Shown here: one piece after another, positions 37,001 through 40,000 of the stretch | Numbering within the stretch: the stretch's first letter is position 1 | Layout of the letters: each line of letters begins with the position of its first letter | NCBI GenBank assembly: GCA_045648025.1 | Contig: JAZRNH010000045.1 | Span: 6,682 to 70,681 of the forward strand | Origin: Clostridia bacterium | GTDB taxonomy: Bacteria > Bacillota > Clostridia > Christensenellales > UBA1242 | Length of the DNA stretch: 64,000 nucleotides | Direction of reading: 5' to 3' | Position numbers and translations under genes: made by a program | Notes under the pieces: generated by a model | Seen by the model: only the letters and a program-made list of their open reading frames with translations | Told to the model about the DNA's origin: nothing | The model's database searches: none

Positions 37001-40000
37001 AAAAAGGTAAGATTAAGCTTGATAAGAGAACTGGTCAAGCTATCCGCAAGAAAACTTATGTAACTAATGCTGATGGAAGCTATAAGTTAGATAAAAACGG
37101 CAATAAGATTGAAATGGGTGGATTTAGAAGATTTACTAAGACATCACTTCATATTGCTAACAAATTTGCTGAAAATACCGGTGTTGGATACTTTATCAAA
37201 CAACAAGGTAAAGCTAAGGTATTAAAATATAAAGCACTTCTTCAAACTGCTGATAAGGTTGCAACTGGTGGAATTGTTGGTGATCTTATTGCAAAGAAGA
37301 AAGCTGGTGAAAAGATTGATTGGAAATCAGTTGGTAAGAGATATGCTAAACATGCAGGAAAAGCTGCACTTGTTGCAACAGCTATTGCAGGTCCTGGACT
37401 TGGACTTACCGCTGTTGGATTCACTGCTTATCATGCAGGAAAGACATTCCTCAACAAGACACATTCTGGTAAGAAATTTAAAGATGGAACAAAGAAATTC
37501 CTTAAATCTGGATATGACATCATGTTTAAAGCTGGAATGGCTTATGAAGACTTTAAAGCTGGTAGAATTGGAATTAAAGATGTTAAGAGAGGTGTAAGAA
37601 GATTCTTCACAGCTGATAAGAAAGTTGGCGAAGGTGGTGGTGCTCAAATCGTTAAGAGAGTTAAGCAAATTTCAAAAGTTGGCTTAGCTGCAACCGCAGG
37701 TATCTTAACTGTTGCATCTGGTGGAACACTTATTCCAGCACTCTTAGCTGTTGGTGGTGCTGCTGCTACAATGAAGGGTGGAAGTGCATTCTTGAACAAG
37801 ACTGCAATTGGTAAACACATCAGAAAAGCTACATCACTTAAATCAATCAAAGAACACTATACAGGTGGATTTACTGCAAAAGATGGTGGCAAATATAAGA
37901 GACACTTGGCGACACAAATCACCAAAACAGTTGTTAAGACTGGACTTGCTGCAACTGCTGGTATCTTAACTGTTGCATCTGGTGGAACACTTATCCCAGC
38001 ACTTTTAGCTGCTGGTGGTGCTGCAGGAACAATGTTTGCAGGAAAATCTGCATTAAATCATACCAAGATTGGTAAGAGATTTAAGAAATTCGAAGCCGAA
38101 GCTATTGCTGATCCTAAGAAAAAATGGAGCAGCATGAAGAAGAGTTTTGTTAACTACTACACTGGTGGTTTACAAAAAGGTCAAAAAGGTTATACATCTA
38201 ACATTGTTAAAGGTATTACAAAGTCTGTTGCAAAAACAGGTCTTACAGCAACTGCTGGTATCTTAACAATTGCATCTGGTGGAACATTTATTCCAACAAT
38301 GCTTGCTACTGGTGGAGCTATGGCTTCAATCAAAGCAGGAAAGACATTCCTTAACAGAACACAAATGGGTAGAAAATTCAAGAAATTTGGAAACCTTGCA
38401 TTTAGTGACCCTAAGGCCGCAGCTGCTAAAGCTGGTAGAGGATTTATAAACTTCTATACTGGTGGAAAGAAGAAAGGCGAAAAAGGATTTGCAACCAACA
38501 TTGTTAAAGGTGTTGGAAGAACAACACTTGCTGCCACTGCTGGTGTGTTATCACTTGTTTCTGGTGGTGGATTCCAAGCAATTGCTCTTGCTGCTGGTGG
38601 TGCAATCGGTGCATCTGGCAAAAAAGGTCAAAGCAAAGTTGTTTCTGGATATAATGCTGTTGTATTTAAGATGACACAAAAACTTCCAAAGATGTGTTCA
38701 CAATATGATAACTGGAATAGAGTTATTAATAACAAGATTACTCAAGTTAAAAATAACAAATCAATGACAAGATCTGAAAGACTTAAAGAAATTGAAAAAC
38801 TTGAGTCACAAAAGATTTTTGTTGAAAAACCACAAAATTACTACAACATGACAATTGAGCAAAAGAATCAATTTGATTTGGCACAAGACAAGCTTAAGAG
38901 AGAAGCATTCACTGATGTAAACCTTGCTAAGTTTGTTAAGAATTTAGACAGAGTTCAAAGAGTTAAACAACCTGGCGATATTGATATTCCAGACATTTTG
39001 ACTCATCTTTCAACTCCAACTAAAGACAGAAAACAAAAACACCTTGAAGCACTTCATCATGCAAGAGCTACAATGGATAGATTCCATGCAACTGCTGCTA
39101 TGAGAAATGCTGAAAGAGATTACGGTGAAGATTTTGAAAAATTTGCTCAAACAATGTTGACAAAGAGACAATTCTTTAGAATGATGTACTTCTATCACAT
39201 TAAGAGTAAGAAAGAATATGATGCTCTTAATGATAGACAAAAGGCAGAAGAAAGAAAGAATCGTGAAAATGCTATTAAAGCACAACTTGCACAAACTGAG
39301 AGAAGACTTGCTAGAAAAGTTGCTAGAGATAATAATGTTAGACCTGAATCATATATGAGATCAAGAGGTCTTGTAGGTGACATTTATAGATATAGCGATG
39401 GTTCTAAGAAGTTTAGAGATGCAAGTGCTTATAAGGGTTCAGGTCTTTCTGATACTGCTGCAAGAATTGCTCAACAAACACAAAGACAATCTTCTGTTGT
39501 TGCTATTCAAAACCAAGCATTAAATATTGATAAGATGATGCAAGAATTTATTAAGTTTAATGCTGAATATAAAGGTACAAGTGCTGACTTTGCTGCAGCA
39601 TTTAAGAAAGAATTTGAAAAATATGGTCCTTATGCTAAGAAGATTTATGAAAAATATGCTAAGTCATTTAGAGGACTTGATGTTTCATTAGAAAAGAGAC
39701 CTATTGCAGTTCAACAAAGAAAGATTATGGAAGATTTAGCTCAAGAGCTTAGTAAGTGCAAACAAAGAGCTACATCAAATGGTATGATTCCTGCATCTAA
39801 GGAACTTAACGATTTGTTTGTTGCTAAGACATTTACAAATGCTACAACTCATGCAGAGCTTAAACTTCATCAACAAAATGCTGAAGAACTTTCAAGACTC
39901 TTGAAACTTATCAAAGAACAAAGAAAGAGCATCAGCTATGATTCACTCATTAAGAGAATTGCTTCAACTCACTTATCTGACTTTGAAATGTCACATCCAC

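Follow-up and report, generated by a model that had tools for sequence, protein, structure and literature searches.

The role of the huge C-terminal extensions of extended VirB6 proteins is a standing question in the biology of type IV secretion systems (T4SSs), and a locus from an uncultured gut Clostridia bacterium raises it in an unusual form. The window, which is the whole 64,000-nt stretch of contig JAZRNH010000045.1 analysed here (positions 6,682 to 70,681, forward strand), contains a gene for a protein of 4301 amino acids (aa) lying among T4SS genes, and five tandem repeats with Gly/Ala-rich hydrophobic cores are embedded in the charged tail of this protein. What would such repeats do in the tail of a secretion subunit? 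We assign the 4301-aa protein to the extended VirB6-like subunits; its T4SS is chromosomal and of Gram-positive type. We tentatively favour, without placing it above an even chance, the reading that the repeats are membrane-association modules in the VirB6-like C-terminal extension, most likely on the producer's own membrane. Coordinates of all features are collected in Table 1.

Five tandem repeats with uncharged cores

The five in-frame repeats lie near the end of the 4301-aa protein, starting at aa 3102, 3207, 3294, 3393 and 3488, and were delimited by DNA repeat search, protein alignment and profile. Their start-to-start spacing is 315, 261, 297 and 285 nt, and the last repeat is a half unit. 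The open reading frame (ORF) stays open over 4301 aa and the profile and alignments agree, bearing out the five in-frame tandem repeats with units of 87–105 aa reported in a preliminary description of this DNA. The starts given there (37366, 37681, 37942, 38239 and 38524) are those of the hydrophobic cores, at most 3 nt off. A profile of the five units recovers each copy at E = 2e-17 to 1e-31, indicating that the repeats are beyond chance. When this profile was compared with about 30 other giant ORFs, the sole further match was the sister-strain orthologue. No other ORF of the 1.42-Mb genome carries more than one such hydrophobic segment.

Each repeat contains an uncharged core, 23, 32, 35, 32 and 31 aa long in copies 1 to 5, composed of Gly, Ala, Thr, Leu, Ile, Val and Ser with one Pro; the uncharged stretch described earlier for every repeat is thus confirmed at 23–35 aa. 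A polybasic amphipathic segment is present 3' of the core in four of the five repeats. The motif GK..LN.T..G..F occurs in copies 1–4 and YTGG..KG.KG in copies 2–4 only, while copy 5 is a bare core with neither motif, so that the basic segment previously assigned to every core holds for the first four copies and fails for the last. The array, 456 aa long, contains 77 K/R versus 15 D/E (net charge +62), and net-positive segments flank each core on either side (+2 to +4 within 12 aa). The helices between the cores are strongly amphipathic, with hydrophobic moments (muH) of up to 0.79, compared with 0.47 for the 95th percentile of the tail.

Over 68 nt, copies 2 and 3 differ at only four positions (37696–37763 versus 37957–38024), a shorter match than the ~80 nt first reported. 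The contrast between core and linker is nevertheless real, with nucleotide identity of 86% in the core and 49% in the basic segment. Between these two copies the proportions of synonymous (pS) and non-synonymous (pN) differences are 0.29 and 0.05 in the core and 0.84 and 0.42 in the following basic segment, values that rest on small counts (~27 synonymous sites). The core is under more constraint than its flanks, at pN 0.05–0.20 versus 0.34–0.42. This contrast, with its lower synonymous divergence in the core, is consistent with a duplication or gene conversion that affected the core recently, as had been proposed, combined with stronger purifying selection on it.

An extended VirB6-like membrane subunit

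The protein that carries the array has three plus three clear transmembrane (TM) helices, which bracket a loop of ~960 aa. A further segment in the second membrane block (aa 1182–1200) has an apparent free energy of insertion (dG) of +4.6 on the scale described below and is not a TM helix. The tail that follows the membrane core is ~3000 aa long and consists, in order, of an acidic part, a basic region with the repeats and a Lys/Glu-rich C-terminal part.

The full 4301-aa protein matches no Pfam family at E <= 0.01, VirB6/TrbL included. The TM core (aa 1147–1305) matches the NCBIfam family NF045848 (E = 3.9e-21, 75.7 bits, under the cut-off of 90) and NF045889 (E = 3.3e-10, under the cut-off of 70), both of which are conjugal-transfer membrane-protein families of Mycoplasma integrative and conjugative elements (ICEs). 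The identification as an extended VirB6-like subunit follows from the polytopic core, the VirB4 and VirD4 neighbours and the long tail with strain-variable repeats. Of the features that characterise such a subunit, at least five TM helices with a large extracytoplasmic loop, a T4SS locus and a long tail with variable repeats were found, and the matches to curated membrane-protein families stay below cut-off.

Membrane propensity and predicted fold of the cores

A Kyte–Doolittle scan of the 3000-aa tail shows no hydrophobic islands other than the cores. Membrane insertion was scored with a crude Hessa-type scale, using central-position values and length-correction constants (Hessa et al.) without position weighting. 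On this scale the cores have apparent free energies (dGapp) of +1.7 to +3.4 kcal/mol, and everything else in the tail scores at least +6.4. The protein's own TM helices range from -4.1 to +1.9, with TM2, TM3, TM4 and TM7 below zero, TM6 at +1.0 and TM1 at +1.9. The hairpins of a congeneric species (G002, see below) score +0.2 to +2.0 kcal/mol, mostly +0.2 to +0.8, which is the range of TM effectors. For comparison, Krampen et al. used a TM-segment cut-off of 1.5 kcal/mol and quoted soluble proteins at +2 to +4 (PMC6110835). Secreted TM effectors are characterised by a segment below about 1.5 kcal/mol (window of 18–35 residues) that is nevertheless too weak for SRP.

An AlphaFold2 model of a single unit, built on an alignment of the five copies, gave a helix, a break at SGGT and a second helix with low confidence (predicted local distance difference test, pLDDT, 51). 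The 362-aa array modelled as a single sequence was also of low confidence (pLDDT 44). The lone hydrophobic islands, their Lys/Arg flanks and the amphipathic basic helices together give the array, as far as its sequence tells, the appearance of a membrane-binding module.

The cores contain no GxxxGxxxG motif and zero to one GxxxG each. Neither the array nor a single unit matches any Pfam family at E <= 10, including the glycine-zipper families PF05433, PF13488, PF13441 and PF13436. The array likewise finds no family for the repeats in PHROGs or NCBIfam and nothing meaningful among PDB sequences. Since both the motif and the families are missing, "glycine zipper", the label under which the segments were first described, is wrong, and "weak small-residue hairpin" is accurate. 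The wider proposal of membrane-insertion hairpins survives in part. The uncharged, helix-turn-helix-like layout of the low-confidence models, the status of the cores as sole hydrophobic islands and the basic flanks speak for it, and the marginal crude score speaks against it.

Variation between strains and species

The sister-strain orthologue (P0002, 4156 aa) was seen on three independent contigs and has three copies of the repeat, compared with five here. Copies 1 and 5 are retained there almost unchanged, and in place of copies 2–4 there are one diverged copy and a basic unit lacking the hairpin. Along nearly the whole gene, synonymous divergence (dS) between the two strains is about 0.1–0.25 and the ratio of non-synonymous to synonymous divergence (dN/dS) is 0.02–0.25, indicating that the tail is under purifying selection. 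An imported foreign allele was considered as the cause of the strain difference and is taken as unproven, as high dS is expected from aligning paralogous repeat units. Separately, a variable patch outside the hydrophobic repeats (aa 2101–2250, nt 34345–34794) shows dN of 0.48 and dS of 0.69 between the strains, the protein being otherwise ~97% identical.

The nearest other species (G012, locus L011) has a VirB4 that is 91% identical and a giant protein that is only 42–46% identical. Its alignment with the 4301-aa protein runs to aa 2887 and resumes at aa 3533, with ~1700 unrelated residues between, indicating that the array sits in a variable cassette between conserved blocks. Across the genus, the giant protein varies in length from ~4100 to more than 6250 aa and evolves far faster than the adjacent VirB4.

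Most congeners have no hydrophobic segment at all in the tail, and hairpin arrays occur sporadically, in about four of ~20 species. Analogous arrays were found in G011 (10 segments), G002 (10 segments) and L029 (two segments, one pair). They share a common design of K/R, ~13 hydrophobic residues, GG or PG.G, ~13 hydrophobic residues and K/R. The arrays of G011 and G002 (loci L016 and L017) comprise five hairpin pairs starting ~300 aa past the last TM helix. They are built from five near-identical repeats of 250–370 aa, each with two Gly/Ala hairpins and a basic linker (KKxxGLxKxYRAADDQTKA / KKALNTGRAFVKASPEARMEMLKK). Copy number also varies in the G011 type, with 10 hairpins in P0004 and six, in three repeats, in P0005.

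The G002 and G011 units are related to each other (hhalign probability 94%). Homology of the window units with either was rejected (hhalign probability 8–24%). An exhaustive phmmer search of 1.84 billion representatives returned only the sister-strain protein and a spurious TPR-like protein (P0003), with no relative outside the species, and a word-indexed search of 5.8 billion proteins returned only P0002. Because the design recurs without detectable homology to the window units, its recurrence in non-homologous form suggests convergence. Comparison of repeat number between orthologues, which the preliminary description had called for, thus yielded a three-copy array in the sister strain; that most orthologues are without repeats weakens the idea of membrane insertion.

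The C-terminal module

The array stops exactly at the border of a C-terminal module of ~770 aa, which is the best-conserved part of the tail across the genus (24–51% identity). In four congeners this module is a separate gene of ~780 aa with its own Shine-Dalgarno site and without a signal peptide or TM helix. These stand-alone modules have no hydrophobic segment (maximum Kyte–Doolittle value, KD19, 0.74–0.86). The module is therefore a separable unit, with a gene fusion/fission polymorphism within the T4SS locus. Its tip, L..LK.MG[IV][DE]I..[IV].LKK (here ...LRGMGIKVSGIKLKK), is basic and conserved in fused and split forms alike. The module matches nothing meaningful among PDB sequences. An internal translation start for the module in the present species was ruled out, since no Shine-Dalgarno site precedes the ATG at 38764, unlike in the split species.

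Possible roles of the repeats

If the repeats are membrane-association modules, each unit would form a weakly hydrophobic helix-turn-helix hairpin that turns at SGG(T) or GPG, accompanied by polybasic amphipathic helices. Anionic lipid head groups would be the binding partners of the basic helices, whereas the hairpin would enter the bilayer partway, as a two-helix element that is re-entrant or marginal and has both ends on the same side. The five units would in this way pin the far end of the acidic spacer of ~2200 aa, and the C-terminal module that follows, to the membrane, which would most likely be the inner face of the producer's cytoplasmic membrane beside the T4SS. We infer the hairpin fold, the membrane binding and the cytoplasmic location of the tail.

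The loop charges of the protein fit the positive-inside rule for an N-in/C-in topology with the big loop outside. Judged by the 3+3 TM topology and the signal-less free module in congeners, the tail would be cytoplasmic when it is synthesised, and the C-terminus of VirB6 of A. tumefaciens is cytoplasmic (PMC7648143). A cytoplasmic tail and basic flanks on both sides of the hairpin, as the positive-inside rule predicts for insertion from the cytoplasmic side, favour the producer's own membrane. The short distance of ~300 aa between the last TM helix and the arrays of G011 and G002 points the same way. Formation or plugging of a channel, or insertion into a target membrane, as suggested in the preliminary description, is possible but not favoured, because the N-in/C-in topology and the signal-less free module put the tail in the producer's cytoplasm.

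Several points weigh against membrane association. The core scores are marginal: they do not fall below the 1.5 kcal/mol cut-off and lie in the band given for soluble proteins in PMC6110835. Confidence is low in both structural models (pLDDT 44 and 51). No such segment exists in most congeners, G012 among them, so the array is dispensable for the core machine. Being strongly cationic, the array could have nucleic acid or the acidic stretch of its own tail as its ligand instead of lipid.

One alternative to association with the producer's membrane, and an unlikely one, is that the T4SS exports the tail, or the distal portion that includes the module, as a substrate, the hairpins being soluble in the producer and inserting in a target membrane as an anchor, translocon or conduit. 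This is in essence the idea of the preliminary description. Low to moderate hydrophobicity and an N-in/C-in two-helix topology are typical of T4SS-secreted TM effectors (PMC12981334, PMC6110835), although the cores in the window are weaker than those of typical members. The basic tip of the module, conserved in fused and split forms, recalls C-terminal T4SS signals. The presence of VirD4 in a genome where the major relaxase families PF03432, PF02486 and PF03389 are unmatched points to protein rather than DNA transfer, and extended VirB6 C-termini are surface-exposed in Anaplasma (PMC7648143). The much faster evolution of the giant protein than of VirB4 in G012 (42–46% versus 91% identity) also speaks for delivery, but the apparent hypervariability is largely repeat turnover, with dS also high in alignments of paralogous units, and not demonstrated diversifying selection. 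Moreover, six strong TM helices anchor the protein, so that the tail could be exported only if it were cleaved or stayed threaded through the channel for good, and no cleavage site is known; the hairpins are also missing from most congeners with the same T4SS. In a broader version, which we regard as a long shot, reduced-genome bacteria, here gut Clostridia, would have relaxase-less chromosomal T4SSs whose giant VirB6-type subunits pass their own tails, or a detachable module, through the machine. The hairpins, kept soluble by low hydrophobicity and basic helices, would then insert in a partner or host membrane as a trans-side anchor or conduit. If this were true, the independent origins of hairpins would be a convergent solution to gripping the target membrane by T4SSs.

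The hairpins might also have no dealings with a membrane. That the small-residue hairpins pack on each other or on a partner, such as the C-terminal module, a chaperone or other VirB6 copies, has a rather low probability in our view. It agrees with a crude dGapp within the soluble range and with small-xxx-small spacing, which favours tight helix–helix contacts. The tail is long, helical and tape-measure-like, and the predicted TM regions of the TP901-1 tape-measure protein were judged likelier to serve chaperone recruitment or assembly than insertion (PMC5099701), yet there is no PHROG or Pfam tape-measure match here. Packing also leaves unexplained the polybasic amphipathic flanks of every core, which are found in the unrelated congener arrays as well, and free variation in copy number (5/3 and 10/6) would be odd for a defined bundle. 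The same copy-number polymorphism in two lineages, the sporadic distribution in about four of ~20 species and the lack of a homologue outside the species among 1.84 billion representatives would suit a nearly neutral expansion, in which unequal recombination multiplied a low-complexity Gly/Ala cassette within a spacer under little constraint and the cores have no specific function. This we consider improbable, as non-synonymous sites are better conserved in the core than in the linker, the two strains retain copies 1 and 5 in a gene with dN/dS mostly of 0.02–0.25, and the design of a hairpin with basic flanks arose in non-homologous form in other species.

Comparison with known systems

The 4301-aa protein resembles the VirB6 paralogues of Anaplasma, Ehrlichia and Rickettsia and TraG of F/SXT in combining a polytopic core with a very long C-terminal extension. 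The extended VirB6 proteins of Anaplasma have strain-variable C-terminal repeats, and the VirB6-4 proteins of A. phagocytophilum reach 4322 and 9935 aa (PMC7648143). Tandem repeats of strain-variable number, a gene beside VirB4 and several paralogues per locus are further points in common with the Rickettsiales proteins. Unlike the repeats described there, which are hydrophilic, those in the window contain an uncharged hydrophobic hairpin. The host here is also different, being a Gram-positive-type, reduced-genome gut Clostridia represented by a metagenome-assembled genome (MAG), and the protein lacks a Pfam VirB6/TrbL match, its core being nearest to Mycoplasma ICE membrane families.

Similarity to the transmembrane effectors of type III secretion systems and T4SSs lies in weak to moderate hydrophobicity, a two-helix layout, the T4SS context and a basic C-terminus (PMC12981334, PMC6110835). 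Unlike those effectors, the segments here are tandem, have weaker scores and reside in a machine subunit with strong TM helices of its own, and secretion is putative. Like the tape-measure protein of phage TP901-1, the 4301-aa protein is long and helical with internal clusters of TM-like segments, whose role in that phage is debated (PMC5099701). It differs from phage tape-measure proteins in that it is ten times larger, is membrane-anchored and has no phage context. The sole PHROG match of the protein is to a family of unknown function (E = 0.023), and the neighbours are T4SS and housekeeping genes.

Hydrophobic helical hairpins are found in pore-forming colicins and in the T domain of diphtheria toxin. 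Like these hairpins and the glycine-zipper families, the repeat cores comprise ~30 uncharged, small-residue-rich residues with adjoining amphipathic helices and may form a helical hairpin. They differ in having no hidden Markov model match at E <= 10, no GxxxGxxxG and no PDB sequence relative.

Southlakia epibionticum (Patescibacteria) has a relaxase-less, pilin-containing Gram-positive-type T4SS for which protein export or another role was proposed (PMC10633639). The present system is similarly chromosomal, sits in a reduced genome and combines pilin-like genes with the lack of a match to three major relaxase families; it belongs to another phylum, and a coupling protein is present.

Extended VirB6-like subunits with variable C-terminal repeats are thus known, and the system is a lineage-specific variant and not a new kind of system. 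We found no description of tandem hydrophobic hairpins with polybasic amphipathic segments in a VirB6 tail, of their non-homologous recurrence within a genus, or of the 5/3 and 10/6 polymorphisms. The locus offers a compact module, delimited at 87–105 aa, with strain-variable copy number and a design that recurs in unrelated sequence in sister species, and this module could be assayed on its own for binding to, or insertion in, membranes. Attachment of the hairpins to the producer's membrane would make the tail a cytoplasmic scaffold on a tether. Insertion in trans, by contrast, would give Gram-positive-type T4SSs a new mode of engaging target cells, and would hint that these gut Clostridia with genomes of 1.1–1.4 Mb depend on contact with other cells.

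Genomic context

The host is an uncultured gut Clostridia MAG of 1.42 Mb that is 95% complete. In public records its relatives are uncultured Clostridia MAGs from human and animal guts. The T4SS locus encodes two further giant membrane proteins, the paralogues measuring 4301, 3901 and 1354 aa. The same Mycoplasma-ICE-type TM core occurs in the 4301-aa protein and in the 1354-aa protein downstream, which likewise matches both NF045848 and NF045889, indicating a locus with at least two paralogous VirB6-like subunits. Housekeeping genes flank the locus, with S20, holA and comEC upstream and lspA, rluD, tig and clpP downstream, and of the other 18 genomes of the genus, 17 retain the VirB4 gene (79–91% identity). 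In the 95%-complete genome, the three major relaxase families PF03432, PF02486 and PF03389 had no match, and the locus is probably non-conjugative. These unmatched families, the presence of VirD4, VirB4 and pilin-like genes, and the housekeeping flanks suggest a domesticated, non-conjugative T4SS.

Table 1. Positions of the repeat array, its host gene and other features of the T4SS locus (positions in the window, except for the stand-alone modules, which are given by locus)
Feature	Position (nt)	Strand	Basis or remarks
4301-aa extended VirB6-like T4SS membrane protein gene, host of the array	28045..40950	+	No stop under table 11; T4SS neighbours
N-terminal membrane block, aa 30-183, three TM helices	28132..28593	+	Kyte-Doolittle and Hessa-type scans
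Second membrane block, VirB6-like core, aa 1144-1302, three clear TM helices and a doubtful segment	31474..31950	+	Hydrophobicity scans, NCBIfam
Acidic Ala/Glu/Gln-rich tail part, aa 1303-2900	31951..36744	+	No hydrophobic segment, best dG +6.4
Repeat 1, 105 aa	37348..37662	+	Short core aa 3107-3129 (nt 37363-37431), then GKTFLNKT and amphipathic basic helices; kept in sister strain
Repeat 2, 87 aa	37663..37923	+	Core aa 3212-3243 (nt 37678-37773)
Repeat 3, 99 aa	37924..38220	+	Core aa 3299-3333 (nt 37939-38043)
Repeat 4, 95 aa	38221..38505	+	Core aa 3398-3429 (nt 38236-38331)
Repeat 5, half unit, 48 aa	38506..38649	+	Core aa 3494-3524 (nt 38524-38616); no LN.T or YTGG; adjoins C-terminal module; kept in sister strain
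Conserved C-terminal module, aa 3533-4301	38641..40947	+	Basic, helical, no hydrophobic segment
VirD4 coupling protein	24641-26605	-	PF02534, 1e-43
Two small T4SS_pilin-like genes	26908, 27393		Weak matches, slightly under Pfam cut-off
VirB4/TraG-P-loop ATPase	41076-43763		PF19044, 8e-19
1354-aa protein	55521-59585		aa 640-798 match NF045848, E = 1e-20
Stand-alone module loci in congeners	L034 (7574-...), L036 (7568-...), L037 (7574-...), L048 (3867-...)

Elsewhere in the genome, contig C18 (2-6469, + strand) carries a 2156-aa ORF that is cut by the contig end and in which a Gly/Ala-rich hydrophobic stretch of 45 aa lies close to the C-terminus; its product may be another giant tail-anchored protein.

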